Made by a program: the position numbers and the translations under genes
NCBI GenBank assembly: GCA_031425655.1
Contig: JANPJS010000037.1
Location: 1 to 41,368, forward strand
Source: Abditibacteriaceae bacterium
Lineage (GTDB): Bacteria; Armatimonadota; Abditibacteriia; Abditibacteriales; Abditibacteriaceae
Length of the DNA stretch: 41,368 nt
Direction of reading: 5' to 3'
Notes under the pieces: generated by a model
Databases searched by the model: none
What the model saw: only the letters and a program-made list of their open reading frames with translations
What the model was told of the DNA's origin: nothing
In this document: piece by piece, positions 959 to 19,865 of the stretch
Position numbering within the stretch: position 1 is the first letter of the stretch
Layout: the number at the start of each line of letters is the position of its first letter

Positions 959-1903
959 ATGGATAACGCATGGCTTCTGGAGTGGCCCGATATTAACGCC
1001 TTGTCCGGCACGTTTTTGGGCCGTTTGGAGGTGCGTGTTCTCCTCGCCGATGTCAACGAAATTACGCCCGAAAGCTGGTCGCTACAGTTGGGCACCACGC
1101 ATTGGCGGCTTTATCAGCACGACGCGCCCGGCAGCTATTTGGAAGGTGAATCTTACGAAGCGGGCACTGCCGCGCCACGCTGGGAATTGTTGCCGCGCCG
1201 TGTGTATCTCATTCCGTCCGGCTGCGTGTTGCAAAGTCGCTGCACGGCGCCGCTGCGCCATTTTTACTTGCAATTCGATTTGCCGGATTTCGCGGTGCAA
1301 AGCGTGCAGCGCGAGCTTTTTTCCGGCCCGGTTGAGGTGCCGCCGTGCGAAGGTTTCGAGGCCAGCGTTATGGCGCTCGCCGATGTTATCGCCGCTGAAG
1401 CCGGTGCCTTGCGCGACATCAGTTGCATCAGTCCGGCGCGCGAATGCTGGGTGCGCGGCGTGATTTGCGAAGCGCTGGGGCGTTATCTTTCGGCGGTGCC
1501 AACAGAAAATCTGACGCGCTATCGCGGACGCCTGCTCGAATTGCGTCCGTTTTTGCCTGCACTGGCGCACATCAACGCGCATCTGGGCGAAGTGCTTTGC
1601 AACCGCGACCTCGCGGCGCTTTGCAACATGAGCGAGGATTATTTTATTCGTCGCTTTCGCATGGCTGCCGGCGTGCCGCCCGCGCGATACATAGCGCAGC
1701 GCCGCATCGCCCGCGCCACCGAACTGCTGCTGACCACTGATTTTGGCATCGAACTCATCGCCGAAACCACGGGGTTTTGCGACCGCCACTATTTCACGCG
1801 CGCCTTCGCCCGCGCCACGGGCCGCACTCCCGCCGCGTTGCGGCGCGACGATGGCTGGTCGCTCAGGACTGAACTTGCCCCTATAAAACAGACAGGTAAA
1901 TAG
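959..1903 (+). CDS. AraC-family transcriptional regulator
   Basis: C-terminal double HTH (LAALCNMSEDYFIRRFR...IAETTGFCDRHYFTRAFARATGRTP) and a cupin-like N-terminus. ATG at 959 after AAAGGG is preferred over the GTG at 896. Confidence 0.92.
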   Translation: MDNAWLLEWPDINALSGTFLGRLEVRVLLADVNEITPESWSLQLGTTHWRLYQHDAPGSYLEGESYEAGTAAPRWELLPRRVYLIPSGCVLQSRCTAPLRHFYLQFDLPDFAVQSVQRELFSGPVEVPPCEGFEASVMALADVIAAEAGALRDISCISPARECWVRGVICEALGRYLSAVPTENLTRYRGRLLELRPFLPALAHINAHLGEVLCNRDLAALCNMSEDYFIRRFRMAAGVPPARYIAQRRIARATELLLTTDFGIELIAETTGFCDRHYFTRAFARATGRTPAALRRDDGWSLRTELAPIKQTGK

Positions 1904-1977
1904 GAGCTGTTGTGTATTGGCCTGACACGCCAGCTCCAAAGCAATTGGGCATTTGTTGCGCAATGTGCCACGATCTC

Positions 1978-2007
1978 TTGACAGGCTCGGCTTCGTCGTC
2001 TTATATT
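1978..2007 (+). promoter_or_regulatory. sigma70-type promoter for the LacI gene/operon
   Basis: TTGACA at 1978-1983, 18-bp spacer, TATATT at 2002-2007. Confidence 0.65.
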
Positions 2008-2032
2008 TGACACGTGCCACTAACACGAGTCA
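2008..2032. promoter_or_regulatory. Tandem putative LacI-family operators
   Basis: Two CG-centred quasi-palindromes, TGACACGTGCCA (2008-2019) and TAACACGAGTCA (2021-2032), directly after the -10 box. A central CG is typical of LacI-family operators. Confidence 0.55.
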
Positions 2033-3078
2033 ACGAATTAATTGCAGATGAAAACAGGCACGCTAATCGGCCTGTCAGTTCGGCGGATGTGGCGCGCGAA
2101 GCGGGTGTTTCGCGCACCACGGTTTCATATGTGCTGAATGGGCGAACAGATTTAGCGATTCCCGAAAAGACGCGCAAACGGGTTTTGGAAGCCGCCGCGC
2201 AACTTGGCTATCGCAATCATCCGATTGCGCGAGCTTTGAAAACGGGGCGCACGCATTTAATCGGCTTATGGCTGGCGCAATTGCACACGCCGTGGGTGGG
2301 TTTGTTGCAGCGCACTTTTTATCATGTGCTGCGCCACGACGGTTACACGCCAGTGGCGCTGGATTTAGGGGTTCAGCACGAGGAACAAGTCGCTGGCGAG
2401 GAAACGCTGGCACGTTTGCCGTTGGATGGCGCCTTTGTCAACGCTTACAGCGCTTTGGCGCAGCGCAGCGGCGAGGGATTGCTGCCGTTAGTCGCCATTG
2501 GTGCGGAGCCGGAGCATCAACTGCCGTTGGATAGCGTGGGGCTGGATTTTGGGCCGGGTGTGCAGACGGCCTTAGAACATCTCATAGCCGCCGGGCGGAA
2601 GCGAGTCGCTTATTTGTTCAATGGCGAACGTCCATTTTATGATGTGCGTGGCGGGACTTATGAAACGATGCTACGTGAAGCCGGACAAGCGCCGTGTTTG
2701 ATGTCGGCAAAAGCTAATTCGCGCGCCGATGCTTACGAGGCTCTGACCGTTGCATGGCGACGCGGCGAGCGGCCCGATGCGGTGTTTTGCTACAACGACG
2801 AACTGGCAATCGGCGCGCAAGCAGCGCTTTTCGATTCGGGTGTGCGCGTGCCCGACGATGTGGCCCTCATCGGCTGCGACGGCGTGCCCGAAGGTGAATT
2901 TTTGCGTCCCCGTTTGCAGTCGGTGGCGATTCCCACCGAAGAACTTTGCGCGCAGGCGTGGCAGTTTTTGCAGGAGCGCATCGCCGACCCCAAACGCCCG
3001 CTGCAACAAGCCATGCTGACACCGCGTTTTGTGCTGCACAATACTAAAAAGGATACCCCCATTTTCAAAGAACCATGA
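2014..3078 (+). CDS. LacI-family transcriptional regulator
   Basis: SSADVAREAGVSRTTVSYVLN HTH, ARAL hinge helix, and sugar-binding domain motifs (DAVFCYNDELAIG, VRVPDDVALIGCD). Confidence 0.95.
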   Translation: MPLTRVNELIADENRHANRPVSSADVAREAGVSRTTVSYVLNGRTDLAIPEKTRKRVLEAAAQLGYRNHPIARALKTGRTHLIGLWLAQLHTPWVGLLQRTFYHVLRHDGYTPVALDLGVQHEEQVAGEETLARLPLDGAFVNAYSALAQRSGEGLLPLVAIGAEPEHQLPLDSVGLDFGPGVQTALEHLIAAGRKRVAYLFNGERPFYDVRGGTYETMLREAGQAPCLMSAKANSRADAYEALTVAWRRGERPDAVFCYNDELAIGAQAALFDSGVRVPDDVALIGCDGVPEGEFLRPRLQSVAIPTEELCAQAWQFLQERIADPKRPLQQAMLTPRFVLHNTKKDTPIFKEP

Positions 3079-4817
3079 AACCGACCTTTAGTTTGCTGTG
3101 CGGATTTCTCTTGACGGTGTTGTGCCCGTCGTTCAGTTCACGGGCTGCGACTGAGCCGGCATTCCCTACGCCGCCGGAACTCTGGAAGGACTTCGACCCC
3201 GACAAAGGCGATTTCAAAGAAGAAATCGTCGCCGAGCAAACCAAGAACGGCGCTTACTCCCGCGACAGCTACATCAGCGCCTATGTGCTTGGCGAGGAAA
3301 TTCGCGTCTTCTGCAAATATGCGGTCAAGGCGGGTGCTCAAAACGCGCCCGGCTTGCTCAATGTGCATGGTTGGATGGCAACTGCCAACATTGACCAGAG
3401 CTATGTGGATGACGGCTGGGCCGAGATGTCCTTCGATTATTGCGGCAAATCAGGCAATCGCGAGCAGTTCACCAAATACCCGGACAAGATGGACTACGGG
3501 CAAATGGAAGGCAAGGTTATCCACTCCAAGCTGCCTGATGGAAAGGATATTACCGACCCCAAACAAACATCGCATTATCTGTGGTTCGCCATTCAGCGCC
3601 GCGTTTTGAGCTACCTACTGGCGCAAAAAGAGGTGGACAAGACGCGCATTGGCGCGAAGGGCTATTCCTACGGCGGCACTCTGATGTGGAATCTCGGCAT
3701 GGATGCGAGGGTGAAGGCGATTGTCTCCTACTTTGGCATCGGTTGGATTGAATACTATCGCAATCGCGCGGTTTGGATGTATAAGCAGCCCAATCAAGAG
3801 CCGCCCATGACGCCGGGAGAAAAGCTGTTTCTGGCGACGGTCGAATCGCAGTCACACGCGCCCTACATCACGGCGGCGACTTTGTGGCTGAACGGCTCCA
3901 ACGATCATCATGGTGGCCACGAACGCGGCGAACAATCCTTCAAGATGTTCAAGCCGAATGTGCCGTGGTCATTTGCCATTCAAGCGCGCGGACATCATAA
4001 CACCGAAAAGCTCGGCGGCGACTGCAAACTCTGGCTCGACAAATATGTTCTTGGCAAAGACATCGCTTGGCCCGCGCGACCAAAATCGGAAATCGTGCTG
4101 GACAAAGATGGCGTGCCAGAACTGCGTGTGACGCCAACTTCGCCAGAGCGTATTCAGGAGTTGAAGATGTATTACGCGCTCAAAGAGCCGACCAACTTCG
4201 CCCGCTCGTGGCGCGATGCGCAAGCCGTCCAAGTTGGCAACGTGTGGACAGCAAAAATGCCGGTTCTCAATGTGGACGACTACGTTTTCGGCTACGCGAA
4301 CATTCGCTACGACAACAACATCGTCTTATCGTCCGACTTCAACGCGGCGATTCCTTCAAAACTCGGCAAGGCGATGGCCACCGACAAACCAACTGATCTT
4401 ATTTCCCAAGGTGCGGGCGCTTGGACGGAGGTAGTTCCGGTGGAAGGCGTGGGCGGTGTTCAAGGATTTCGCGCCCTCAACAACGCGCAGGGCACTCAAA
4501 ACGACCAGTTCGCCGACCCGAAGTGGAAAGCGCCCATCAACGCACAATTGTCATTGCGCTTCTACTGCACCGAGCCACAAAAGCTAACTCTGGTGGCAAA
4601 CGGCCGATATGAAATGCCACTCAACATCACCGCTTCGGACGAGTGGCAAAGCCTTGTCATCGCGGCAGTCAAGCTGACCAACCAACAAAACCAACAGCCC
4701 TTGCCCGATTGGTCGAATGTTCTGGAGGTGCGGATCAAGCCCCAGAAAGGTTCGGACATCACCAAGGTCATCTTTGCCCAGTTCAAATGGGTGTCGCCGC
4801 CAGCCAAACAGCCATGA
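3075..4817 (+). CDS. Secreted alpha/beta-hydrolase (dienelactone hydrolase / acetyl-esterase-like) with C-terminal beta-sandwich domain
   Basis: Signal peptide, PGLLNVHGW oxyanion region, GYSYGG nucleophile elbow, downstream Asp (GSNDHH) and His (RGHHN). ATGA overlap with the LacI gene. Confidence 0.8.
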   Translation: MKPTFSLLCGFLLTVLCPSFSSRAATEPAFPTPPELWKDFDPDKGDFKEEIVAEQTKNGAYSRDSYISAYVLGEEIRVFCKYAVKAGAQNAPGLLNVHGWMATANIDQSYVDDGWAEMSFDYCGKSGNREQFTKYPDKMDYGQMEGKVIHSKLPDGKDITDPKQTSHYLWFAIQRRVLSYLLAQKEVDKTRIGAKGYSYGGTLMWNLGMDARVKAIVSYFGIGWIEYYRNRAVWMYKQPNQEPPMTPGEKLFLATVESQSHAPYITAATLWLNGSNDHHGGHERGEQSFKMFKPNVPWSFAIQARGHHNTEKLGGDCKLWLDKYVLGKDIAWPARPKSEIVLDKDGVPELRVTPTSPERIQELKMYYALKEPTNFARSWRDAQAVQVGNVWTAKMPVLNVDDYVFGYANIRYDNNIVLSSDFNAAIPSKLGKAMATDKPTDLISQGAGAWTEVVPVEGVGGVQGFRALNNAQGTQNDQFADPKWKAPINAQLSLRFYCTEPQKLTLVANGRYEMPLNITASDEWQSLVIAAVKLTNQQNQQPLPDWSNVLEVRIKPQKGSDITKVIFAQFKWVSPPAKQP

Positions 4818-7762
4818 GAAATCTTGTTTTTTGCGCCATTTTTACCGCTGTCAACGCGATAAATGTCCACGCCGCGCCCGCCATGCTTTCTACCGACACT
4901 TTTCAATTGCACTTTGCCTCCGATGGCAAACCGGCCTCGCTGCGCGCGGGCACCGACGAACTGCTGAACGTCGCCAATCCCGGCATCGGGTTTTCGCTGT
5001 CTCTCAAAAACGCGCAGGTGCCGCTGACCGATCTTTCGCTGCAAGGCGACAAGCTCATCGCACGCTCGGCCAACGGCACGCAGAGCGTGACTTTTGCGGT
5101 GCATCGCGGCACGCAATATTTGGCGTTTCGCCTCGTGGAACTCAAAGGCGTGCCCGCTTCCAGCCCACTGGCGCTGCAATTTGAGATGAACGCCTCGCCA
5201 CGCGCCCGCGTGCTGGAACTCGATTACATGACGCAAGCGCGCAGCGACGGCGACGGGCCGCGCGTGATGTGGAATTACCTCTTGCACCTCGAAAACAACA
5301 AGGTGCAAGGCGGCTTTGCGCTTTATGTGCGCCAAACCGAAGACGACGAAGACGACGAAGACGACACGCTGCTGCACATCTGGGCCGAAGAAAAACTTCC
5401 GCATCCCAACGTGCCCGGCGAATGGACTTACGAACGCGCCCGCCAATGGATGAAAGAGTGGCAGACGCTTTTCGCCGACCGCAGCCAGATGATTCTCGAA
5501 GGGCAAAGCGTGGCCGAACTGCGCGAGGCAATTCCCTTTGCCGAGCGTGCGCAAATCAAAGAAATCTATCTGTTCACCAACACCTGGCGCACCGACGCCT
5601 TCTGGCCGCGCACCGACACGTCGTGGGGCGTCAATCGCAAGGTTTTCCCGCGCGGCGAAGACGATCTCAAAGCTTTCTCCGATGAACTGCGCGCGAAGGG
5701 CATCCGCCTCAATTTGCATTACGTCAGCGGCGGCATCGGCCCGTTCGACCCGCTTTACGTCGCCGCCAAACCCGACCGCCGCCTCGCCAGTTGGGGCAGC
5801 GGCACCGTGGACGCGACCGACGAAAAAGCCAAGGACTTGGTGTTTCGTCCCGCGCCCGGCGTGGAGTTGCCCTATAAAGGCGATATTTTGGGCCGCCCGC
5901 CCGAAGTGCCGCATTTTTTTGAATTCAACTATTTGCGCCTCGAAAACGAACTGCTGCGTGTTGGCGAATTCGCGCCGCAAAACGACGGCACTTGGCTGCT
6001 GAAAAACTGCACGCGCGGCTTGTTCAACACCAAAGCCATAGCGCACGCGGCGGGTGCCAGCGCCGCCGGGTTGTTTTCGGCCTACGGCCAGAACTTCGTG
6101 CCCGACAACGAGAGCACGCTGCTTAACGAAGTGGCAGGCAACTACGCCGATTTGCTGAACCGCTGCGGCATCGCGCACACCGAATACGATGGCGGCGAGA
6201 TTCACTGTTACAGCGGCGGCTGGGGCTTTGAAAAGTTCGCCACGTTGGTCTACGAAAAGCTCGATCACCCCGTCACTTCGCACACCAGTGGCGGTCGTGC
6301 CCCGCGTTGCCACTTCGAATACCGTCTGAACTCCACGCAGCGCTTGATGCGTGGCAACAACCGCTTCACGCATGGCAACTACGCCGTGCCGCTGCAACTG
6401 GCCGGCAATGCGCGCGTGGCCAGCACGATTTTGGATGCCAATTTCACGCTCAGTCAAGGCAACCTCGGCGGCGCACTCGGCATTAGCAAGCCCGAACCGA
6501 TGTTCGGCATCAACGCGCAAACGCTGCGTGCCCACGGCCTCACCGAGCGATTCATTCAAACCCTGCTCGACTGGAAAGCCATCAGCCGCACGCTGACCGA
6601 CGCGCAGCGCACGCAATTGAACAGTTGGTTCACGCGAACCACCAGCCGGATGCCGGAACATAGCAACCATCCGGTTTCGCCAATTGTGCCGGTGGCGCGA
6701 CGCACGGCCAACAGCGGCTACGAGATTGTGCCGACGCGCGTGCTGACGCGCAAAAGCGGCAACATCGCGTGGCAGCAAGGCCAGGAACACGGCCCGGTTT
6801 CGCCGCGCCATTTCATCAAGCCCGGCGAAGAATTGCTCCTGCAAAATCCCGACGCGCCGCAAACGCCGCATTTCATCGTGCGCGTCGGCTGGGCGCTGGA
6901 TGCCAAAGCGCCCTCGGTGCTACCCGGCAGCGCCACGCCCGCGCCGGTTTCAGCGACCGAACGCCTGAATGACAGCTTCACCGCCGGAAACGTGACCGCC
7001 GCCGTCGTGAATCCGGCCAATGCGGCACCGAACTTTTGGCTGCAACCCACAGCGGCCACGCTGCGCGCTTCGGGCGACACGCGCGCCACTTTTGAGGGCA
7101 ACGCCTTGCGCCTCTCGCAAAACAACGCGCGCGACACCGAACGATGGGAAACCAAACTTTTGCCGTATTGGAACCCCCAACTGGACATGAGCCGCCACCG
7201 CGCGCTTGGCCTCGACATCAGCGGCGATGGCAGCGGTGCCACGCTGCTCTTGCAAATCAACGGGCGCGACTACGTGGTGCCGCTCGACTTCAAAGGCCGC
7301 CGCCACGTGGAAATCCCGCACGGCGAAGCCGCGTGGTCATCCGGCGCGTGGGGCTGGCGTATGGACACCAAACACGCCGATTACACCCGCGTGAGCACCC
7401 TGAAAATCGGCTTCGGCTTCGTGCCGCCGCGCACCAATGCGTCAGTGCTGGTGGAGAATCTGCAAGCGCTCCGCGAAGCGCCCACCACGCTGCAAAACCC
7501 GATTTTTCGCTGCAACGGCGGCACGCTTAGCGTGCAAGGCACCATCGCCAGCGGCCAGTATTTAGAATATTCCGGCGGCGAGCGCGCCACGCTCTACGAT
7601 GAAAACTGGCAGAAAATCCAAGACCTGCCCGTGACGCTGAATAATTTCACCGCGCCCACCGGCGAAGTGAAAATCGCCGTGACGAGCACGCAAACCACGC
7701 CGCTGCCGTGGCTGGAAACGCAGTTTTTGACAGAGGGCACGCCGCTAAAGGTGGGCGGGTGA
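4814..7762 (+). CDS. Large secreted putative glycoside hydrolase (TIM-barrel-like core, family uncertain), 982 aa
   Basis: ATG at 4814 overlaps the upstream stop (ATGA) and gives a signal peptide (MRNLVFCAIFTAVNAINVHA). FPRGEDDLKAFSDELRAKGIRLNLHY and HTEYDGGE resemble clan-D-like (GH27/36-type) barrel motifs. CBM-like C-terminal region. Confidence 0.6.
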   Translation: MRNLVFCAIFTAVNAINVHAAPAMLSTDTFQLHFASDGKPASLRAGTDELLNVANPGIGFSLSLKNAQVPLTDLSLQGDKLIARSANGTQSVTFAVHRGTQYLAFRLVELKGVPASSPLALQFEMNASPRARVLELDYMTQARSDGDGPRVMWNYLLHLENNKVQGGFALYVRQTEDDEDDEDDTLLHIWAEEKLPHPNVPGEWTYERARQWMKEWQTLFADRSQMILEGQSVAELREAIPFAERAQIKEIYLFTNTWRTDAFWPRTDTSWGVNRKVFPRGEDDLKAFSDELRAKGIRLNLHYVSGGIGPFDPLYVAAKPDRRLASWGSGTVDATDEKAKDLVFRPAPGVELPYKGDILGRPPEVPHFFEFNYLRLENELLRVGEFAPQNDGTWLLKNCTRGLFNTKAIAHAAGASAAGLFSAYGQNFVPDNESTLLNEVAGNYADLLNRCGIAHTEYDGGEIHCYSGGWGFEKFATLVYEKLDHPVTSHTSGGRAPRCHFEYRLNSTQRLMRGNNRFTHGNYAVPLQLAGNARVASTILDANFTLSQGNLGGALGISKPEPMFGINAQTLRAHGLTERFIQTLLDWKAISRTLTDAQRTQLNSWFTRTTSRMPEHSNHPVSPIVPVARRTANSGYEIVPTRVLTRKSGNIAWQQGQEHGPVSPRHFIKPGEELLLQNPDAPQTPHFIVRVGWALDAKAPSVLPGSATPAPVSATERLNDSFTAGNVTAAVVNPANAAPNFWLQPTAATLRASGDTRATFEGNALRLSQNNARDTERWETKLLPYWNPQLDMSRHRALGLDISGDGSGATLLLQINGRDYVVPLDFKGRRHVEIPHGEAAWSSGAWGWRMDTKHADYTRVSTLKIGFGFVPPRTNASVLVENLQALREAPTTLQNPIFRCNGGTLSVQGTIASGQYLEYSGGERATLYDENWQKIQDLPVTLNNFTAPTGEVKIAVTSTQTTPLPWLETQFLTEGTPLKVGG
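5339..5365 (+). repeat. In-frame 9-bp tandem repeat (GAAGACGAC)x3 encoding EDDEDDEDD
   Basis: Read directly from the sequence. Confidence 0.9.
7708..7762 (+). repeat. Copy 1 of duplicated 3' end of the 982-aa gene (WLETQFLTEGTPLKVGG*)
   Basis: The first 21 bp (GTGGCTGGAAACGCAGTTTTT) are identical to 9793-9813; the remainder differs mostly at third codon positions. Confidence 0.93.
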
Positions 7763-7796
7763 TGGCGAATTCGTGAACCCGGCGCTTTGTATTTTA

Positions 7797-7815
7797 AGCT
7801 GGAAGCCTGCGCTAC
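7797..7815 (-). repeat. Partial GTAG-type REP element
   Basis: The minus strand reads GTAGCGCAGGCTTCCAGCT, a GTAG tetranucleotide plus one arm of a GCAGGCTTCCAGCCTGC-type hairpin. Confidence 0.45.
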
Positions 7816-7841
7816 AGGATTCGCAGACAATATCAACTTGC

Positions 7842-9614
7842 CTATTCGATAGGCTTAAAGAAGGGTTGGTTCTCCTGCTTCAAGTCGCCAAGGTCTTTCA
7901 CTTCGGACACGCGAGGGACATGCCTAATATCAACTCCACGAATACCCGAATCTTCCTCGCAAACAACAAATATTGGACACCAAACCACATAATAATCATA
8001 ACCCTTAGCATTTTTTGGATCCTCAAACCTTAACTCAGTTTCTTTTTGGACCACATACAAATTCGCTCTATTTGTATCAGCTATCACGCCCATGAGATCA
8101 TCAAGATGATTTGGCGCTCTCCTTGTAAAATCTACCATCCAATATCCTCCGGCTGCCGACGACGGGACGAGAGGCACCTTGTGTTCAATACCATTGAGTA
8201 AAACATTGCCCCACTTGGTCCCATAACCTTTTTGCTTAGTGGAAAGCGATATAGCGGAGGTGAAGGTTGTGCAATTAAACGTCTTTGCACGAAAAGACTC
8301 ATCTGTATTATCCATTGAACCAAACTTCACATCTCTACCGCAATAAGGAGCCAGCAAAAACATTTGCTCCTCAAGATCATTTTTAAAAGTTTTACCAGAG
8401 GTATCGGGACAAAATTGACCTGCTTTTTTAAGGAAGTTCCCATTCAATAGTTCTCTGAATTTATCAGGAAGCACTATCTTGGCACTTCCATCACCAACCC
8501 ATGGCATAATTTGCACTGGTGAGGGGTTAAATGGGAAGCGAGAGGTGACCTTTGCAGGGTCTATATCAGACCTGAGATTACTGAATACATAAGTTACTTT
8601 AGCTTCGATGACCCGTCCCTTACGTTCATGAAGTCCAAGGTCTGGCATTTCAATCCAGATATTGCCATTACCTATATCAAATCGAGCTTTACCAGTAACC
8701 GGTTTGCCGTCACAAGTCAGTTCATATTTTATGGGCACCTGTAACCCTTCGATGGTCGGAGGCACAATCGCATTAACGGAGCGAACTTCTCTGAAAAATC
8801 CTCTCTTGCTATTTGGGTCTTTTTTCGGTTGCTGAAACTGCTGCCAATCCTCATCGGTGAATTTCTTGGTGTCCACTGCAAAAGTCATTTGCTTGACACG
8901 ATATTCACGAATCGGATCCCTGTCGCGATAAAGCTCCTTAGGGTCTTTACACTGTGCAATTTTCGCTAACAGATCCGGTGTCCACGTTATTTCTCGATTG
9001 AAGAGGTCGTCTGGCAGCCCGTTTCGATAGACAGGGCGCTGTTTTGGGGTGCTGCTTGCGCTTTGTGATCCTTGGTTATTCGCCGTGCCAGCAGTCGGAG
9101 GCTGTTCCGTCTGCGTCTGCGGCTGTTGAAGCTGAATAGCGAGGGCTTGAAACTGCCCGTCCTGCCCGTTTTCGCCCAGCACGGCGATGCCGGTGTTGGG
9201 GACAAATTGCGCCTGCGCTAAAACCACCTTTTGCCCGTTTGCCACAATGAGAATATCGGGGCGAGCCAGCTCTACGTTTTTAGGGCGCGGTGGCGCAATG
9301 GCCGACGTGCGCCCGGCGGCATTCGTGAAACTGGCGGCTAAGAAAACCAATGTCGCACCACGGCGCTCCTGAACGGTGCCACGCAACAACAATTGTTGCG
9401 CGGTGCGCGGCACGAACGCCGCCGCAAAGTCGCGCGGCAGCGCATCATTTGTGGCAGACAGTGGGGCAGGTTCCGCGCCCAATTGCGACTGAACCGGAGC
9501 AGCAAACGCCAGCAAACAAGCGCCAATCAACATGGGCACCAGAGCCGCGAGAAAACTCCAACGAGCGCAGAAACGAAGTGTGTTTTTTGTCATGGTTGTC
9601 ACCGCTGGCGTCAT
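7842..9614 (-). CDS. Secreted protein with GC-rich N-terminal domain, Q/T/S linker and AT-rich C-terminal transglutaminase-like (Cys-His-Asp) domain
   Basis: 590-aa ORF with a hydrophobic signal region. Motifs KTFNCTTFTSAI / GIEHKVPLV / GGYWMVDFT match the order and spacing of the transglutaminase-like triad. The start could be 9593. Confidence 0.6.
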   Translation of the reverse strand: MTPAVTTMTKNTLRFCARWSFLAALVPMLIGACLLAFAAPVQSQLGAEPAPLSATNDALPRDFAAAFVPRTAQQLLLRGTVQERRGATLVFLAASFTNAAGRTSAIAPPRPKNVELARPDILIVANGQKVVLAQAQFVPNTGIAVLGENGQDGQFQALAIQLQQPQTQTEQPPTAGTANNQGSQSASSTPKQRPVYRNGLPDDLFNREITWTPDLLAKIAQCKDPKELYRDRDPIREYRVKQMTFAVDTKKFTDEDWQQFQQPKKDPNSKRGFFREVRSVNAIVPPTIEGLQVPIKYELTCDGKPVTGKARFDIGNGNIWIEMPDLGLHERKGRVIEAKVTYVFSNLRSDIDPAKVTSRFPFNPSPVQIMPWVGDGSAKIVLPDKFRELLNGNFLKKAGQFCPDTSGKTFKNDLEEQMFLLAPYCGRDVKFGSMDNTDESFRAKTFNCTTFTSAISLSTKQKGYGTKWGNVLLNGIEHKVPLVPSSAAGGYWMVDFTRRAPNHLDDLMGVIADTNRANLYVVQKETELRFEDPKNAKGYDYYVVWCPIFVVCEEDSGIRGVDIRHVPRVSEVKDLGDLKQENQPFFKPIE

Positions 9615-9792
9615 CGCCCAGCCGAGATGATTTTATCCGCCAACCGACAGAGCCGCAAAAGCCAGCGACGTTTCAGGCGTTGTCGAAGGTAACGGTGTAG
9701 TGGACGCGGTAAAATGTGTGAGGCGAATCTCCGTGAAGTTTGGCATAGCAGTCGTTTTGGAGAAAAACAAGAAATTAAGCACCCCAACAATT

Positions 9793-9847
9793 GTGGCTGG
9801 AAACGCAGTTTTTAACGCAAGGCACGCCGCTGAAAGTGGGACGGTAA
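9793..9847 (+). pseudogene. Stranded second copy of the 3' end of the 982-aa gene (WLETQFLTQGTPLKVGR*)
   Basis: 55-bp diverged direct repeat of 7708-7762, ending in TAA, then GGA and the ATG of the next gene at 9864. Confidence 0.9.
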
Positions 9848-11837: not shown

Positions 11838-14800
11838 AGCTCATTCGGTCACTTCTCACCTCTTTTATCGCGCTCGTTGCGTCCCTGGCGCCCTTGGTCG
11901 TCTGCGCGCAAAACGCCGTAGACCCGGACCCGAACGGCGTTTTGCTGAGGCCGATTCCCGACAAGCTGGTGGTGCTGACTTTCGACGATGCTCCGGCCAG
12001 TCATGCGACGGTGGTCGCACCGATTCTCAAGGAAATGGGTTTCGGCGGCACGATTTACGTTTGCGACTTCGATTCGTTCAAAACGCGCAAGGACTGGTAT
12101 TTGACTTATCGCGAGATGAACGCCATGCACGCGGATGGTCTGGAGATCGGCAATCACAGTTTGGGTCACCATTCTGGATACGGGCCGATGGTGGCCATGG
12201 AAGATCAGGTTCTGGCCCACGGCGGCCCACGAATGACCACGTTGTGCTGGCCGATTTACAACGTGAACTGGAACGACTGCCCGAAGCTCGCCGCGCACGG
12301 CTACACCTTCGGGCGCGGTGGTCACGAGCGGCCTTATCGGCCTACGGTGGACAATCCTTTTGATGTGCCGTCCTTTTCGATCCACGATGGCGTTCCGGTC
12401 GAGAATTTCATCAAGCAAGTTCAGCAGGCCTGTCAGGGCAGGGTAGTGGTGCTGACGTTTCACGGGGTGCCGGACATGGAGCATCCGCCGGTGAGTCTGG
12501 AACCGGCGACTTTCAGGGCGATGATGCAGTATCTAAAGGAGAACCGCTACCGCTGCATCGCCATGCGCGACATGGCTCACTATATTGATACGGCCAAGGC
12601 CGCGACGCTGCCGCGCACCGCCAACGATGCCAAAGGCGCGCCGCCCTTTGAGCGTATCAAGGACGAAAAGCCCTTCGTCGCCCCGCCTGCAAGCGATCTG
12701 CGCGAATTTCGTTTTCCCGACCTGCCGCCGGCAAGCATCGCCAAAAACAGCGTGCGCCTTACCGTTCCGTATGCCACCGATGTGACGGCGCTCGCGCCGA
12801 AAATCATTGTATCCGCCGATGCCACCGTCGCCCCGGCGTCCGGCACCGCGCGCGATTTTTCCACGCCGCAAACTTACACCGTCACCGCGCGCGATGGCTC
12901 GGCCAAAACCTACGTCGTGACGGTGCAAAAAACCGCCATCAGCGACGCCAAGGAACTGCTGGCTTTCACGCTGCCGGGCGCGCGTTCCATGGCCCTGTCG
13001 CGCAACCGCATCGCCGTAAGCGTGCCGACGACCACGGATGTGACGGCGCTGGCTCCCACGTTTACGCTGTCGCCTTTCGCCACGGCGGTTCCGGCTTCGG
13101 GAACGGCGCGCGATTTCACCGCGCCGCAGAATTACACCGTCACGGCGCAGGATAAATCGTCGCAGACAGTCACCGTGGCCGTGGTGAAAAGCGACAAGCC
13201 AAACGCCTTTGTGTGGAGCAAAGCCGAAAACGGCAACTGGAGCGATGCCACCAAATGGTCGGCTGGCGAAAGCGCGCCAGCGAGCGCCGGTCAGCCGGAT
13301 TATATTGTGAGCTTCAACCAAGGCGGTGCCTGCACGACAAAGAACGATTTGAACGCCGGATTTGTGCTGAACCAACTCGTGCTGGGAGACCGCTCCGGCG
13401 GATTGATTGTGACTGGCAACGGCCTGAGCTTCGGCCAGGAGCCAACGACCAACATTCCGCCGATGATTCATGCGGGCAAATGCCAGCGGGTGGACATCAA
13501 CGTGCCGGTCACGCTCCTGGATGATCTCACTGTGCAAACCGCCGCCGACAAAGACCCCAATTGCTTTCTCAGTTTCAACGAAGTCATCTCCGGGCCGCGT
13601 GCGTTTAGGCTGCAAAGTTCCGGCGATGCCAACGTCGCCGGTATCAACTTCCACGATGTGCATTTTGGCATTCTGCAACTCAACAACGTCAACACCTACA
13701 GCGGCGGCACCTTTATAAGTGGTGGCAAAATCAACGTCAGAAAAACCGGTGGCCTTGGCACAGGGCCGGTGACGCTGGACAGGTTCGGCACTTTGTCCAA
13801 TGAGCGCGAACTCGCCAACCCCATCGTCATCAATCAGGGCACGCTGTTTCATAGCACGCTGAGCGGCCCCGTTACGCTCAACGGCATCGCGAATCTGATC
13901 GGCAATTGCACGTTTTCCGGCACCCTGAGCGGAAACGGCGGTTTTACGATGCGGGGCACCAACGGAACCTACCTGAGCATGGTGCCGGGCGGCACCGTGA
14001 CGCTGCTGGGCGCAAGCACCTACACCGGGCCGACCACTGTTTTTCCGGGCACGCTGGTCATAAAAAAAGCGGCGGGCCTTTACAATGGCGACGCCGCGCA
14101 ATGGACGGCGGCAAACCTCACCATCCATAAGGCCGCGACGCTGCGCCTCAATGTCGGCGGCCCCGGCGAGTTCAGCGGCGAACAAATCGGCACGCTGCTG
14201 GAAAACCTCACGCGCGCGGCCAACGACAACGGCCTGATGGGCGGTGCGTTTTTGTCGCTCGACACCGCTAGCGCCACGCAACCCGTCACTATTTCGGCGA
14301 GCATCGCGGATTCCAAAGGCCCCGGCGGCGGCGCGTTTCTTTTCAAAAAATGCGGCAGCGGCGCGCTGCGTCTTGCGGGAAACAATACTTACACAGGCCC
14401 AACGGTTCTAGAAAACGGCAGCCTGATTGTCGCGTCGCTCAACAGCTACGCCAAAGGCAAGGGCAAAGCCAGCAGCAGCCTCGGAGCGCCGACCGACATC
14501 GAAAGCGGCGAAATCGTGATCGGCGAGGAAGGCAGGGACGGCGATTGCGCCATCATTTATACCGGAAGCGGCGAAAGCTCCGACCGCGTGCTGAACCTTG
14601 CAGGAAAAAACGCCACCGTGACGCTCGACCACTCAGGCACCGGCCTGCTGAAACTCACCAGCGACCTCCTGATTTCCGGCTACGGCGCCAACAAAAAAAT
14701 CGCGTTCAAAGGCGACACGGCGAGCAGCGGCGAATTCGCCGGTGCCATCAACAACCCGCACGACCGCGCGGGCAAAGCCACCACCGCCATCACCAAAAGC

Positions 14801-15073
14801 GGCACCGGCCAATGGACACTCTCCGGTGCAAACGCCTTCAGCGGCCCCGTCACCATCACCGGCGGCACCCTTGCCATCGCCAGCGAGCGCAGCCTTGGCC
14901 CGAAGAGCGAAGTAACTATCAGCAACGGCGCGAGCCTCGAATTGAACTTCCAGAGCCAACTCAAAGTTCATAGGCTCACTCTCGATGGCAAAGAACAGCC
15001 TGCGGGAGTGTATTCCTCGGCCAACGCCGCCGGTTTTATCAAAGGAACCGGCTCGCTAAGCGTCTTGCCTTGA
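11834..15073 (+). CDS. Polysaccharide deacetylase (NodB/CE4-like) + two Ig-like repeats + autotransporter-associated beta-strand repeats; no visible beta-barrel
   Basis: VVLTFDD, EIGNHSLGH and VLTFHGV deacetylase motifs; two VP..TDVTALAP...PASGTARDF..PQ.YTVTA.D repeats; several K.G.G.L.L.G.NTY.G.T....G.L repeats. Confidence 0.88.
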   Translation: MKLIRSLLTSFIALVASLAPLVVCAQNAVDPDPNGVLLRPIPDKLVVLTFDDAPASHATVVAPILKEMGFGGTIYVCDFDSFKTRKDWYLTYREMNAMHADGLEIGNHSLGHHSGYGPMVAMEDQVLAHGGPRMTTLCWPIYNVNWNDCPKLAAHGYTFGRGGHERPYRPTVDNPFDVPSFSIHDGVPVENFIKQVQQACQGRVVVLTFHGVPDMEHPPVSLEPATFRAMMQYLKENRYRCIAMRDMAHYIDTAKAATLPRTANDAKGAPPFERIKDEKPFVAPPASDLREFRFPDLPPASIAKNSVRLTVPYATDVTALAPKIIVSADATVAPASGTARDFSTPQTYTVTARDGSAKTYVVTVQKTAISDAKELLAFTLPGARSMALSRNRIAVSVPTTTDVTALAPTFTLSPFATAVPASGTARDFTAPQNYTVTAQDKSSQTVTVAVVKSDKPNAFVWSKAENGNWSDATKWSAGESAPASAGQPDYIVSFNQGGACTTKNDLNAGFVLNQLVLGDRSGGLIVTGNGLSFGQEPTTNIPPMIHAGKCQRVDINVPVTLLDDLTVQTAADKDPNCFLSFNEVISGPRAFRLQSSGDANVAGINFHDVHFGILQLNNVNTYSGGTFISGGKINVRKTGGLGTGPVTLDRFGTLSNERELANPIVINQGTLFHSTLSGPVTLNGIANLIGNCTFSGTLSGNGGFTMRGTNGTYLSMVPGGTVTLLGASTYTGPTTVFPGTLVIKKAAGLYNGDAAQWTAANLTIHKAATLRLNVGGPGEFSGEQIGTLLENLTRAANDNGLMGGAFLSLDTASATQPVTISASIADSKGPGGGAFLFKKCGSGALRLAGNNTYTGPTVLENGSLIVASLNSYAKGKGKASSSLGAPTDIESGEIVIGEEGRDGDCAIIYTGSGESSDRVLNLAGKNATVTLDHSGTGLLKLTSDLLISGYGANKKIAFKGDTASSGEFAGAINNPHDRAGKATTAITKSGTGQWTLSGANAFSGPVTITGGTLAIASERSLGPKSEVTISNGASLELNFQSQLKVHRLTLDGKEQPAGVYSSANAAGFIKGTGSLSVLP

Positions 15074-15109
15074 AGGAGAAACCGCCCCCTTTGGCGCGAA
15101 ACTCATTCC

Positions 15110-15208
15110 CCTCTGGCGGACGGGAATCTCTGGAACAAAGAAGGACTGCCCGCTGCGCCGTTTCGCAGCGATACCAAGTCCGCGCCGCAGAAACTTCCCA
15201 AGCAATAA
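15110..15208 (+). pseudogene. Orphan 3' end of a sialate O-acetylesterase-family gene
   Basis: My translation from 15110 is PLADGNLWNKEGLPAAPFRSDTKSAPQKLPKQ*, matching the family's terminal NL.N..GLPA.PFR.D motif. Confidence 0.72.
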
Positions 15209-15232
15209 TCCCGCTGCCGAGCAATAAACTTT

Positions 15233-18200
15233 ATGAAATTCAACACATCACTTGCCATTCTAATTGCCTGCGCTCTCTCCTCAGTCGCGTGGGCCGATGT
15301 CGTTTCGACTGCCGACAAGGACGGTGACTTTATGGCGGCGGCCAATTGGGGCGGGATTGATCCCAAGTCCAAGCCGGAGGAGACCTTTGTGGTGTCTGCG
15401 GGCCACAAGCTGTTGCTCAAGACGGGCAGCAAGGATTCGAGATGGCCGGTCAAGACCGTGGTGGTCAGTAAGGGCGCAGTGCTGGGCGTGGAGGCAAATC
15501 CCGCGTTCGATTGCTCTGGCAAAACCGTGGTGCTGGATGGCGGCGAACTGAACATGGAGCGCGGATTAGTCAAGAACTTGACGTTGGAAGTCCGCGCTGG
15601 CTCGCTGCGTGCGGCTTTGGGCGGCTTCGATGGTGGCAAAGTCGTGGGCAAAGGCGCGCTGGAAATCGTGCGCGGGCCGGGAAACGTCCGCACGCTGACG
15701 CTGCATGATGTGGATTTTGGCGGCTATGCGGGAAAAATCGTGGTGGGCGAGAACATGAAAGGCACCACCACGCTCCTGCTTACGGGCAGCAGCCGGAATC
15801 TGCACGCCGCCCAAATGGAAATCAGTCCGCCGAACCGTCAGGGTTTCAGGGTTCACTTTGCCGATGGCGTCAATATGCTCGGTTCGTTCGTGAACAAAAG
15901 CCGCTTTGTCAGGCTGAATCTGGGCAACAGCGCCTGCACTTTCGCAAATGGCTCATCGCTGGGGCCACAGGCGGCGGTGTTATTGCCGGGCGTCTATACG
16001 CCAGCTTCGACCTCCGACTACTCGCAGATTCCGCTGCTCAAAGGCGGCTTTGCCGATCTCAAAGAGACGTTTGAACCGGAATCCCTCGAAGGTTCCACCA
16101 TCACCATTTTGCCGCCAGCGGAGCAGAAGCCGCTCTATCGCATTGACGCGGGCAGCACGCTCACGCTGAAGGAGGGCGTCAGCGATTTTTCCGCCGCCGG
16201 TTCCGAACTGTTGCTGAACGGCGGCGTGCTCCAAGCCTCTGGCAAACGCAGCATCACGGGCCGGGTTCAGCTTTTGAACCACTCCGTTGTCATCAGCGAC
16301 GAGGAGTTGGTTTTTGCCAAAGGAGCGCTGAGCGGCTCTGGCAACCTTCGTCTGGCGGGCAAAGGGGGGCGGATTGTCTTCGAGAAAGAGTTCAATCTGC
16401 AAGGCTTCGTCGGCACGATCATCACCGAGGGACTGGCGGGGCCGACAGAACTTATCTTTCGCAGCGGCGGCTGGGGCAGCGCCAAGCTCTTGCTCAACGG
16501 CAAGACACCGGTGCTGGTGAGTGGCGGCGATTCGTTGCAAACCCTGGGCAGCTTCGCCATCGCCAGCGACAAGGCAAAATTCGATCTCGGCAAAGGCACG
16601 GCGGTCGTCGCGGCGGGCAGCCGTGTCGGCGACAAAACGCTGGCTGCGGGCCTTTACACTGCCGCCAACAGCGAAGGCTTCAAAAAAGTGCCCGTGACGT
16701 GGAGCGAGCGCGTAAACAAAGCCGATGTTTTTCGCAGCGGCACGATTGATTTGAGTCCGCATCTCGCAGGCAACGCGTCGGCGACTTCGGCAACGCTGGC
16801 AGTGGTGGAATTACAACGCGTCGTCTCGACGGCAACAGCGGGCAGCATCGGCAGTCCCGGCAGTTGGGGCGGTTTGAATCCCAATTTGCTGACGGCCACG
16901 CAGTATGAAATCGCCAGTGGGCATACGCTCAACGTGGGCACCGAGAATTGGCAAGCAAGCGAACTGGCGATAGCCAAAAACGGCGCACTTTCGCTGGATA
17001 ACGACCTTGCTCTGGGTGGCCGCAGCCTCGCTTTTCATGGCGGCACGTTGCAATGCGAAGCGGCGCAGGCGCGCACGATTGACGGCGACCTGCTGATTTT
17101 CGACGACCATCTTCTAAAGGACGAATACCACGGCACGCTGCTGCTCAATGGCGGCGACGTGACCGTGAAAGGCTGCGTGGTCGGCGCTCGCAACAAGCAG
17201 TCCGCGCTCGACATTCGCCGCACCAAACCCGGCGCGATAAGGCTGACCATCGCTGGCGACATGGCCAAAGTCGCGCCGACCGGCGTGGGCTACGATGTGA
17301 CGGTCACTGACTTTGCCGGCCACCTCGACTTGGTGTGGAGCCAAGGCGCGCTCAACGAAGGCTACGTGGTGTTTCAGCCGAAATCGGGCACCGTCAGTTC
17401 CAGCAAAGGCTTCAATTCACCGCGTGGCACGCTGCGTTTGCCTGCCAACAACGCGGTGAAGCTGGACCTAAAAAACGCGACGAACACCTTTCAAATCGGC
17501 ACTGCCGTCGGTGGCGTTTTCATCGAACGCGGCCTGTGGAATGAGGCCAATACCGCCGGTTTCACGCAGGTGCCGGAGTGCAACACCAGCCGCAAAGTGG
17601 ACATCACGCCGTATCTTCTGAACACCAAAGGCGCCGCCCTTGCGATCAGCAATCCCAGTGCTGGCGTGACTGGCAAAGAAGACGACTTCGACATGGATCA
17701 AATCTTCGCGCCGGAAGTGGCTTTCAATCCCGAAACGCTCCAGCAGCTTCGTGGGCAGTTCACCGAAGAGTTGGTCGCGCCTTATCGCAAGGCCCTGCAA
17801 ACCAAGACCCCGTATCACATGGTCATGGGCAAGGTGTTTTCGCACTCGGATTTCACCTACGGTATGTTCACCCACACGGTGTTCAACACGTATACCGCCT
17901 ACCGAATCCTCGACAACGACCCCGTGGTGTTTGAACGGATGATGGTGCTGGCCGATTACCTGCAACAACTGCTCACTCTCGATCGCATGGCCACCAGTTC
18001 CGAGGGCGAGCGCAAAGCAGGCTGGCCTGCTCCCGCCGAGCAATTTACCTGCGCCAGCTTCACCAGCATGACCGTGTGCGCCTTGGAAATTTGGCGCAAG
18101 GAGCTGGCACGTCCCGGTTCCGTTGACAAAAAGCTGATGGCCAAAGCCGATGCTTATCTCGATTTTGCGTGGAACCTCAACGAGCCGCAGAACCCGATGG

Positions 18201-18952
18201 CCGGCCTGAAAAAATACCTCTACTTCGACGGCAAACTTGATCCCGCCACCGGCGCTCCTCTGTGCGTGGTGCAACAAGGCGACTGGTTCACCTGGAACAG
18301 CGCCTCCGGCATTTGGCTGGCCGCCGCGCCGCTGCTCGAAGCCATCCGCGTGCGCAAGCTGGCGACCGGCAAAACCGATTGGGACAAAGCCCACGATGTC
18401 GCCGCGAAAGGCCTGACGTATTACATGGATTTTTTCTTTCGCGACAACACCGTGGGCGCAATAGACGGCAAAAACTACGTTTGGTGGGCTTACAACACGG
18501 GTAGCAACGGGCAAAAAGCCTTCGTGGGCAACGGCCCCGGCTGGAAAGACGGACTTTATAAAGGCATGAAAATCATCAAGGTGGGCGAAGATCAGGCCCA
18601 CGCCAAAGCCGAGTTATTCGGCTTCCACTGGCTGCATTTCATCAGTCCCAACGCCTATCATCTCACCGACGAGCGCATGGAACGCATCGCCAACGGCGCG
18701 TTTAACTGGCTGGGCTGCTCGCCCTACGGCGGCCTGCGCAATATGTTCAATCCCTACCGCTTCGAGCTTGGCGACACCATCGCCCCCGAAGCCGGGCCGC
18801 AAGGCGCAGCCTACTACGCGAGTCAAAGCGTTTTCAGTTCACCGCGCACCTATCGCCACATCGTCTTTAACGGCTACAAGCAAAACAAAGGCCTCCAAGG
18901 CCGACTGGACTGGCTATGGGTGAAATGGCTCTACCAGACCAAATTAAGATAG
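15233..18952 (+). CDS. 1239-aa secreted protein: three passenger-like beta-solenoid modules plus a ~420-aa aromatic, helix-rich C-terminal domain of unknown function
   Basis: Signal peptide, repeated V.ST...G......WGG and G.YT.A....F..VP blocks, and an abrupt compositional shift near 17680. Confidence 0.7.
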   Translation: MKFNTSLAILIACALSSVAWADVVSTADKDGDFMAAANWGGIDPKSKPEETFVVSAGHKLLLKTGSKDSRWPVKTVVVSKGAVLGVEANPAFDCSGKTVVLDGGELNMERGLVKNLTLEVRAGSLRAALGGFDGGKVVGKGALEIVRGPGNVRTLTLHDVDFGGYAGKIVVGENMKGTTTLLLTGSSRNLHAAQMEISPPNRQGFRVHFADGVNMLGSFVNKSRFVRLNLGNSACTFANGSSLGPQAAVLLPGVYTPASTSDYSQIPLLKGGFADLKETFEPESLEGSTITILPPAEQKPLYRIDAGSTLTLKEGVSDFSAAGSELLLNGGVLQASGKRSITGRVQLLNHSVVISDEELVFAKGALSGSGNLRLAGKGGRIVFEKEFNLQGFVGTIITEGLAGPTELIFRSGGWGSAKLLLNGKTPVLVSGGDSLQTLGSFAIASDKAKFDLGKGTAVVAAGSRVGDKTLAAGLYTAANSEGFKKVPVTWSERVNKADVFRSGTIDLSPHLAGNASATSATLAVVELQRVVSTATAGSIGSPGSWGGLNPNLLTATQYEIASGHTLNVGTENWQASELAIAKNGALSLDNDLALGGRSLAFHGGTLQCEAAQARTIDGDLLIFDDHLLKDEYHGTLLLNGGDVTVKGCVVGARNKQSALDIRRTKPGAIRLTIAGDMAKVAPTGVGYDVTVTDFAGHLDLVWSQGALNEGYVVFQPKSGTVSSSKGFNSPRGTLRLPANNAVKLDLKNATNTFQIGTAVGGVFIERGLWNEANTAGFTQVPECNTSRKVDITPYLLNTKGAALAISNPSAGVTGKEDDFDMDQIFAPEVAFNPETLQQLRGQFTEELVAPYRKALQTKTPYHMVMGKVFSHSDFTYGMFTHTVFNTYTAYRILDNDPVVFERMMVLADYLQQLLTLDRMATSSEGERKAGWPAPAEQFTCASFTSMTVCALEIWRKELARPGSVDKKLMAKADAYLDFAWNLNEPQNPMAGLKKYLYFDGKLDPATGAPLCVVQQGDWFTWNSASGIWLAAAPLLEAIRVRKLATGKTDWDKAHDVAAKGLTYYMDFFFRDNTVGAIDGKNYVWWAYNTGSNGQKAFVGNGPGWKDGLYKGMKIIKVGEDQAHAKAELFGFHWLHFISPNAYHLTDERMERIANGAFNWLGCSPYGGLRNMFNPYRFELGDTIAPEAGPQGAAYYASQSVFSSPRTYRHIVFNGYKQNKGLQGRLDWLWVKWLYQTKLR

Positions 18953-19025
18953 AGAAGCAGTAGACAGCACCTTCACAGTTGCCAGACGCTCTTCGAAATC
19001 AGTTTGTCAGGCTGTGGGCTTTTTT

Positions 19026-19637
19026 ATGACTGCATCCTCCGCGCCGCCTCGCACATTGCCTTCGCTCGCCCTTGCGGTGAGCGTGCTGGCGGTTTCCTCT
19101 GGCTCGATTTTCGTGCGATTGTCCGACGCGCCGCCGCTGGTCACGGCGGCGTGGCGACTGACGCTGGCCACCGCGCTGCTGCTGCCTTTTGAAGTAAAAA
19201 CCCCAACCGATAACACGCTGGTCGTCACCGTCAACACCAACGCGTGGGGCGCTTTTTCCAACAAGCCCGCTGTGGATTACGTGGTCGCCAAGCCTCTCAA
19301 AGGCTCGCCCGATTGGCAAACCGTAAACGTGGATTTGGCCGAACTGGCCGCCAACGACCCGAAAACCACCGCGCCGCTGCAAAATTGGCGCACGGTGACC
19401 GAGTTCAGCCTCTGCCCCAGCGGAGAAATCGTTCAAGACGGCCAAAAAGTCAAAGTTGGCGGCAAAGCATGGGACGGTCCACGTGAGATTCGCAACCTAC
19501 GTTGGGAAGGCGGCGAATACGCGCCTGTGGTCACGACAAATGCGGCGCTGAGCGCGGCAGATCAGCAAAAGGCGTTTAACGACGCCATCAAAAAATCGCT
19601 GGAACAGGAAAAAGCTGACGCCAAACCAAAACCCTGA
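19026..19637 (+). pseudogene. In-frame chimera: 5' fragment of an EamA/DMT-type transporter fused to a second copy of the hydrolase 3' end
   Basis: LALAVSVLAVSSGSIFVRLSDAPPLVTAAWRLTLATALLLPF is EamA-like. 19187-19637 aligns without gaps to 11387-11837 (offset 7800). Confidence 0.85.
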
Positions 19638-19654
19638 AACAAACAATTCCTCGG

Positions 19655-19861
19655 CTCGCGGCGCTCTGCAACATGAGTGAGGACTATTTTATTCGTCGCT
19701 TTCGCACTGACGCCGAAACCACGGGGTTTTGCGACCGCCACTATTTCACACGCGCCTTTACTCGCGCCACGGGCCAGACCCCAGCCGCATTCCGGCGCGG
19801 CGATGGACGGTCACTCAGAACATCCCGCCCCATAATAAGCAAAGATAATGCGGTTCTTTGA
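19655..19861 (+). pseudogene. Stranded, internally deleted copy of the AraC gene 3' end
   Basis: Aligns to ~1610-1885, lacking 1661-1735 (75 nt) and 1741-1758 (18 nt). ORF 19673-19861 reads MSEDYFIRRFR-TD-AETTGFCDRHYFTRAF. Confidence 0.9.
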
Positions 19862-19865
19862 TTGG

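Follow-up and report, generated by a model that had tools for sequence, protein, structure and literature searches.

Stranded gene ends and nested insertions without an integrase in an Abditibacteriaceae genome are probably scars of one-sided homologous capture

Three + strand genes of an Abditibacteriaceae bacterium, coding for an AraC-family regulator, a 982-residue protein and a 657-residue hydrolase, are each followed downstream by a second, diverged copy of their 3' end. They lie in a window of 41,368 nt (contig JANPJS010000037.1 of assembly GCA_031425655.1, positions 1–41,368, forward strand), and all coordinates given without a contig name are positions in this window. The genome (referred to as G000) is that of a sediment bacterium; it has 5.98 Mb in 327 contigs (N50 28 kb) and is 97% complete and 0.45% contaminated. 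We use anchor for the intact gene with the new 3' end, stub for the stranded old 3' end, and cargo for the DNA between the two.

The first anchor is the AraC-family regulator (896–1903, +; Pfam HTH_18/HTH_AraC), which is intact and carries its incoming 3' end within the repeat at 1610–1869. The cargo of this event begins with a LacI-family regulator (2014–3078, +; Pfam LacI and Peripla_BP_3). A 580-residue alpha/beta-hydrolase-like protein follows (3075–4817, +; weak Peptidase_S9/DLH matches), a distant paralogue (31%) of the 657-residue hydrolase. The second anchor, the intact gene for the 982-residue protein of unnamed family (4814–7762, +; incoming 3' end 7708–7769), precedes a cargo (7770–9792, −; insert 2,085 bp) that holds a single 590-residue ORFan (7842–9614). 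The stranded old 3' end of the 982-residue gene (9793–9854, +) stands just before the start of the third anchor, the intact 657-residue AXE1-like hydrolase (9864–11837, +; weak AXE1/DLH matches), whose incoming 3' end spans 11387–11837. Its cargo consists of a 1,079-residue polysaccharide deacetylase with DUF5018 and PATR repeats (11834–15073, +; Pfam), a 1,239-residue protein (15233–18952, +) and the cut 5' start of an EamA/DMT transporter gene (19026–19191, +), which would be the end of the donor fragment. The stranded old hydrolase 3' end (19187–19637, +) is in frame with this start, and 17 bp past it comes the stranded old AraC 3' end, with two internal deletions (19655–19845, +). The right flank of the nested insert is a Gfo/Idh/MocA oxidoreductase (19866–21245, −; Pfam; 90% DNA identity in the congener G002), the original convergent neighbour of AraC.

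When the 9 main open reading frames (ORFs) between 896 and 19637 were scanned with Pfam and NCBIfam (smaller ORFs were outside the scan), no integrase, transposase or reverse transcriptase was found, as the original prediction had it. No family match was obtained for the 982-, 1,239- and 590-residue proteins (for the first, in Pfam, NCBIfam and PDB sequences; for the second, in Pfam and NCBIfam). The 982-residue protein falls in unnamed Atlas clusters at 0.98–0.99, and the ORFan retrieved only itself among 8,000 candidates. The N-terminal third of the ORFan has a G+C content (GC) of 0.61 and the remainder one of 0.42–0.45, and by its composition it is possibly a chimera itself. The description of the region as a carbohydrate locus is thus borne out in part, by the matches of the AXE1-like/S9 hydrolases, the polysaccharide deacetylase and the LacI and AraC regulators, the other three proteins being unmatched.

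Self-BLAST of the window recovered all three 3'-end pairs on the + strand. The AraC pair aligned in two segments (1610–1661/19655–19706 at 94% and 1749–1869/19702–19821 at 85%), the stub lacking two internal stretches (about 1660–1734 and 1741–1758). The 982-residue gene pair (7708–7769/9793–9854) was 82% identical (E 2e-10), and the hydrolase pair (11371–11838/19170–19638) 84% identical (E 1e-141). The repeats are 62–471 bp long, with offsets of 18,045 bp for AraC, 2,085 bp for the 982-residue gene and 7,800 bp for the hydrolase. The pairs are nested and never cross: those of the 982-residue gene and the hydrolase follow one another, both inside the AraC pair. For the hydrolase pair, the rates of nonsynonymous and synonymous substitution were dN 0.087 and dS 0.618 (dN/dS 0.14), and the stub has kept an open frame across 150 codons. 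The 982-residue gene pair gave dN 0.055 and dS 0.70, and in the AraC pair third positions hold 14 of the 18 differences. The pairs, their nesting, the intactness of the anchors and the divergence of the copies as functional alleles were all as originally predicted.

Ahead of the hydrolase stub stand the first 54 codons of the EamA/DMT gene. Its intact counterpart in G002, 85% identical, lies one gene downstream of a hydrolase homologue, and G000 has no second copy of the EamA gene. The cargo of the hydrolase event therefore ends in the middle of a gene, with no homology to the recipient at that end; the incoming DNA is homologous at one end only. At the joint, TTTG is common to the EamA gene and the hydrolase (19188–19191 vs 11388–11391 of the hydrolase). 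A second joint elsewhere in G000, with an uncut sister gene nearby, showed a TGGA microhomology. Such readings come from a relative's or a sister copy, not from the donor itself. Both readable joints are in-frame fusions (the EamA–hydrolase ORF of 203 residues at 19026–19637, and G000:C267 ~43770–44010), which may be chance with two out of two. No motif common to the joints was evident by eye.

It was possible to tell which copy is the resident at the second event. The 982-residue stub stands directly before the hydrolase start, the same placement as that of a remnant in G002, and this remnant is closer to the stub (46 of 55) than to the present end of the anchor (41 of 55). Hence, the old, resident end survives as the stub, while the end now found on the anchor came in with the insert. 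No recipient DNA was lost at this event, the empty state differing by exactly the insert (7707 to 9793). In G002 itself (G002:C66; L013:13592–16944), the 982-residue remnant and the hydrolase start occur twice, flanking a WD40 gene, so that this locus bears a scar of the same kind in another species.

The window was compared with four metagenome runs, at contig level only and at a likeness of 88%, and what follows rests on the matches listed. In the probable source run, the listed pieces had a depth of 12.6–13.9. One unitig (1768–10255) holds both copies of the 982-residue gene end together with the cargo between them; another (11594–19173) extends from the hydrolase end to 13 bases short of the EamA joint. 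No listed piece covers the joints at 19187 and 19655, nor the whole stretch. A contig from run X4, which is of a different study, holds 1613–1977 with 3 differences and represents the filled state. Positions 1–141 of the window are identical to the end of contig C122 (11533–11673), and the two contigs probably join.

Empty sites were observed for two of the three window events. A 727-bp contig of run X3 (of the source study), about 94% identical, joins 7707 to 9793 and skips exactly the 2,085 bp, which is the predicted empty state with the 982-residue gene leading into the hydrolase. Two other X3 contigs match the AraC stub from 19711 and, further upstream, still have the intact AraC sequence that is deleted in the stub, while a contig of run X2 runs through 19711–19955 into Gfo/Idh. 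Taken together, these adjacent pieces suggest AraC adjoining Gfo/Idh, the other empty state that had been foreseen. None was found for the hydrolase event among the matches listed in the four runs. Low-depth X3 pieces cover the hydrolase cargo but are without the 2,085-bp insert, and this hints that the insert in the 982-residue gene is the youngest. For the AraC insert, the originally proposed ~18 kb is probably not the size at arrival, which we put at about 8.2 kb, with growth afterwards. For a further anchor, the congener G003 showed an empty site, with 86 bp to the neighbour vs 655 bp in G000. G002 was rejected as an empty state for AraC, since it has the Gfo/Idh orthologue but with a different neighbour. 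A metagenome scan with the hydrolase gave 80 loci at 53–70% amino-acid identity, with no shared synteny and no conspecific empty sites. Same-genus genomes, at 77–90% identity, are too distant to assign donor and recipient alleles.

We then took the census to the whole of G000. Genes were called by a simple codon model and each contig was searched against itself by BLAST. Repeats were accepted when they had at least 35 bp and at least 45 bits, overlapped a gene of at least 150 residues and were non-palindromic, provided that the partner copy was not within a gene of similar length. A downstream, direct copy of the 3' end was found for 45 of 3,745 genes (1.2%, about one in eighty), with 51 stubs in all. 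The bias in direction was strong: 45 genes had the copy downstream vs 3 upstream, with 1 + 1 inverted (P 1e-10). An earlier filter that also removed multi-copy repeats, keeping 121 of 242 candidates, gave 43 vs 3. The median stub is 73 bp long and the median cargo 972 bp, and the cargo sums to about 110 kb (nested cargo being counted twice). The similarity within a pair, 70–98% in identity, ends at or near the stop codon. The route is thus a recurrent one, as had been proposed.

For the 48 stubs shorter than 200 bp, taken together, 207 of 342 differences were synonymous, where at most 42% would be expected under duplication followed by decay (P 6e-12). The pooled dN/dS was 0.16, or 0.23 with a transition bias of 4, and for pairs of at least 90% identity it was 0.11. 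A duplicate decaying beside a functional partner would be expected to give a value near 0.5 or more. The low dN/dS and the synonymous excess therefore indicate that the copies are alleles that diverged under selection, obtained from relatives with working alleles. Among the 35 stubs with the stop at the same position, 20 use a different stop codon.

Annotation covered 24 anchors and 38 cargo ORFs. The anchors include prfA, secA, lepA, pyrG, glnA, carB, recG, hflX, a phosphohexomutase, Mrp and glycosidases; the cargo includes three PIN (toxin–antitoxin) genes, two methylases, an HNH nuclease, a rhamnosidase and sulfatases. Such anchors as prfA, secA and pyrG, and such cargo as PIN genes and methylases, do not support the tie to a carbohydrate locus that the original prediction had made. 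No integrase or transposase was present among the 38 annotated cargo ORFs, and none of the 6 tyrosine recombinases in G000 falls inside an insert. The cargo has a GC of 0.53, compared with 0.58 for the anchors and 0.56 for random downstream DNA, and is below its anchor in 38 of 45 cases. For 33 of the 51 stubs, the joint lies at most 50 bases after or at most 15 bases before the stop of a same-strand ORF, vs 16% of random cargo positions, which would follow from selection for complete cargo genes or from later trimming of junk. Four anchors carry 2–4 stubs, and one further nested case was seen.

A mirror class, with a copy of the 5' end upstream, comprised 23 genes (dN/dS 0.25–0.34), and its background (5' copy downstream) 16 genes (dN/dS 0.43–0.56). 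A mechanism specific to 3' ends, such as reverse transcription, is disfavoured by the existence of this class, though its background is high.

Some other features of G000 may be recorded here. A GH4 gene in L109 (G000:C70:21226-24203) is followed by four stubs, two of which have the same start position, a hint of a preferred joint. SecA in L127:1801-8574 (G000:C306) has 2,257 residues, its domains being split by long inserts; that these are inteins is a guess. One joint (G000:C24:13963 region) cuts into a multi-copy family of palindromic repeats, which also forms clusters between small genes on C211 and C103. In the window, at 28429–33567, hsdS and hsdR (type I restriction) are split by a gene similar to REP-associated tyrosine transposases (30105–30758; match just under the cut-off), with about four 130-bp palindromic repeats (29699–30103, 30640–30765). 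No hsdM was found among the ORFs scanned. The transposase-like gene was rejected as the agent of the insertions, being 10 kb outside and not linked to them, with repeats of its own.

The same scan in other DNA gave scars in 0 of 570 genes for G003, 1 of 272 for G002, 0 of 241 for G012 (a relative from another genus), 1 of 231 for G005 and 0 of 445 in metagenome loci. The pooled count of 2 in 1,759 genes corresponds to an odds ratio of about 11 for G000, in a comparison with samples of 0.36–0.76 Mb rather than whole genomes, with G002 contigs partly chosen via matches and with overlapping metagenome loci. In another species, G001, a glnA stub was 95% like the glnA of that genome and had a different start, while the glnA stubs of G000 were 96–98% like its own gene. 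Since the stubs track each species' own allele and start differently, these were independent events with donors close to each host. For prfA, 1 weak case of a stub was found among 75 loci elsewhere. A full comM had no match in G003 (79% complete), the congener with 0 scars in 760 kb. Besides a single full comM, G012 has about 20 fragments of the 3' part alone, 68–87% like it, in either orientation and for the most part at a distance from it (G012:C1:57000-296000, 6259000-6260200, 6584000-6586700; L333-L341). They sit among transposases, a recombinase zinc-ribbon gene, TIR/NB-ARC and GH2 genes, and look like remains of comM-targeting elements and not like the gene-end scar.

We conclude, with a probability of about 0.88, that an allele from a relative entered through one homologous end and one illegitimate joint, without an integrase. 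That relatives' DNA supplied a new 3' end with cargo and stranded the old end had been the central proposal of the original prediction, and the dN/dS values, the empty states, the microhomology joint and the 45 cases across the genome argue for it. Nothing that the original prediction had named as refuting it turned up in the contig-level data. How the joint came to lie inside the anchor we infer. A trimmed, recircularised fragment integrated by a single crossover is the likeliest version, which we favour by a narrow balance. A fragment from a close relative would carry the 3' part of a shared gene together with the donor's following DNA. Its two broken ends would be joined at a few bases of microhomology to form a circle, and RecA would integrate this circle by one crossover in the shared gene end, as has been demonstrated for E. 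coli (PMC3240628). The layout observed is the anchor with a new end, the cargo, the joint and the old end in its original context. The recipient would lose nothing, so that even essential genes could tolerate the insertion. Selection would keep those events whose cargo stops just after a complete gene, and genes in an earlier insert could serve as the next anchor, which would produce nesting. In the window, the nested inserts would measure about 8.2 kb (AraC), 7.8 kb (hydrolase) and 2.1 kb (982-residue gene).

The preference for a circle follows from published products. Homology-facilitated illegitimate recombination (HFIR), the mechanism named in the original prediction, usually deletes about 1 kb as it inserts DNA (PMC3240628), whereas here the recipient end is kept and duplicated. 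In E. coli, 56 of 60 one-sided recombinants were duplicated (109–950 bp in the 14 that were sequenced), by way of a recircularised molecule (PMC3240628), and a circle has been argued to be necessary for displacing an rhs tip without deletion (PMC2935791). HFIR deletes while the circle route duplicates; we therefore rank the circle above the linear variant of HFIR described below. In 34 of 48 pairs there is an identical run of at least 20 bp; most runs (40 of 48) fall within the 5' two thirds.

Several points weigh against a recircularised fragment. No circle and no donor sequence was seen, and the crossover point is not mappable; the back-joint of a circle was absent among the matches listed in the four runs, where contigs drop rare forms. 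The longest identical run exceeds the permuted value only slightly (29.3 vs 25.9; 28 of 48 pairs above), and outgroup sites that would show the copies to be reciprocal mosaics are few. For RecA to act on copies of about 90% identity, with MutS and MutL in the genome, the median stub is short, although stubs may have been trimmed later and some joints may be secondary. Ku was not found in G000, which leaves the end-joining activity unnamed, and just 2 of the 51 joints could be examined for microhomology. G000 has recA, comEC, dprA, comM and recJ, but competence genes are also present in most control genomes, so that their presence proves little. The E. coli result came from conjugation with an engineered plasmid, and the same paper suggests that competent species may favour linear HFIR (PMC3240628). 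Loss of RecJ, MutS or MutL as the cause of the high rate was rejected, all three being present.

The linear variant of HFIR, a refinement of the mechanism in the original prediction, is the strongest competitor, and we regard it as possible but the less probable of the two. Here the incoming single-stranded DNA would pair with the anchor up to the stop codon, and the microhomology joint would be made on the displaced resident strand inside the gene and not downstream of it; joints within the gene delete nothing and would hence survive selection. It predicts the same final layout, and it uses long upstream homology, so that no crossover in a 70-bp repeat is needed, which is a further point in its favour. 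The 4-bp microhomology is within the 3–10 bp reported for HFIR, competence genes are present, and HFIR has been proposed for module displacement in the type VI secretion system (T6SS; PMC5361080). Moreover, of the 7 informative sites in the 982-residue stub, 6 agree with the outgroup, which is what a stub of purely resident origin should show. The deletion of ~1 kb that accompanies insertion in published HFIR products (PMC3240628) speaks against it. At sites 19759, 19760 and 19762, near the 5' part of the AraC stub, relatives carry the letters of the anchor instead of those of the stub, a weak hint that this part is non-resident.

A fresh, long target duplication, arising by break repair or from a trans-acting element and followed by neutral decay of the spare copy, is improbable. 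A published class of insertions has the same layout, without mobility genes and with repeats often over start or stop codons (PMC2853133), some G000 pairs are 96–98% identical, and two methylases and one HNH nuclease occur as cargo. However, the synonymous bias, which persists in the most similar pairs, largely refutes this explanation; a copied target would not give a similarity that halts at the stop codon with stops that often differ, and most of the annotated cargo is not of the restriction-modification type.

Tandem duplication of the whole island, or a merodiploid, with decay to stubs is more improbable still. Transformation can produce tandem duplications between repeats (PMC3784515), and the AraC stub has decayed by deletions. 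Yet in a tandem copy the AraC stub would come before the hydrolase stub, and the opposite order is seen, which refutes tandem duplication here; the cargo has no second copy in G000, and no relative with two complete copies of the island was seen among the relatives and runs compared. A chimeric assembly of two strains, for which a fragmented metagenome assembly and the two uncovered joints would speak, is hardly credible in view of the even depth, the pair-spanning unitig, the X4 match, the low contamination and the fact that a k-mer assembler cannot join a 4-bp overlap without reads.

The scars could conceivably be more than accidents and reflect a working, integrase-free cassette cycle, which we consider doubtful. 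RecA would loop out the cargo between the two copies of a gene end as a tagged circle; relatives would take up the circle and reinsert it at the same gene, the conserved gene end acting as the attachment site. The presence of up to four stubs per gene, the independent glnA events in two species with related cargo, and the missing comM match in the incomplete, scar-free G003 are consistent with such a cycle, but leave it unproven. If it were true, this lineage would exceed its relatives about tenfold in its use of the route, possibly via competence-linked joining of the displaced strand.

Accessory genes without an adjoining mobile element are common, and the route of their addition is poorly documented. 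The scar described here is a countable and directional trace, found at 1.2% of genes, essential ones included. The simple scan can be used on any genome collection, by which the share of gene gain by one-sided homologous capture would become measurable, and, with strain data, it could separate the circle from the linear models. No published genome-wide census at housekeeping genes was found in the open-access literature, most subscription papers lying outside the scope.

Integrase-driven elements, such as e14 at icd/icdC and tRNA islands, also restore the 3' end of a gene and displace the old end, but they need an integrase and a fixed site. In G000, unlike these, there are 45 different anchors, the joints vary (the glnA stubs differ), and the inserts have no integrase. 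With HFIR, as PMC3240628 and PMC2884548 describe it, the scars share one homologous end, one microhomology joint and a context of RecA and competence; they differ in that recipient DNA is kept and partly duplicated, instead of the typical deletion of ~1 kb.

Insertion with long target duplication (Furuta, Abe and Kobayashi 2010; PMC2853133) concerns restriction-modification cargo, is ascribed to restriction-modification activity and was reported mostly in competent species. That class and ours have in common inserts below 20 kb, repeats above 30 bp that often lie at a start or stop codon, the lack of a mobility gene, the empty site in relatives and an occasional gene fusion. In contrast, the window inserts have no restriction-modification genes (elsewhere 2 methylases and 1 HNH nuclease among 38 cargo ORFs), and the repeats in G000 are selection-diverged alleles of 70–98% identity, not the near-identical target copies (44–47 of 46–47 bp) of PMC2853133.

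In rhs C-terminal displacement (Jackson et al. 2009; PMC2935791) and in T6SS module displacement in Vibrio cholerae (Kirchberger et al. 2017; PMC5361080), a new 3' end likewise pushes the old one downstream and arrays of stranded ends form (up to 4 in G000), and circle or HFIR models were proposed for them. The part exchanged there is a toxin tip without homology, with an immunity gene, at a dedicated locus. The anchors in G000 are ordinary genes (regulators, enzymes and housekeeping genes) whose ends are homologous alleles, and what is gained is the cargo. The single-crossover insertion-duplication of Amarir-Bouhram et al. 2011 (PMC3240628), obtained by E. coli conjugation with identical homology at a frequency of 4e-9, has a similar product: one-sided homology, added foreign DNA, a partly duplicated anchor in direct orientation, no integrase and no loss to the recipient. 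It differs in that the events in G000 are natural, involve diverged alleles and occur at 45 loci, the intermediate not being observed. The architecture itself is therefore already published; the genome-wide count, the nesting and the allelic origin of the copies are new.

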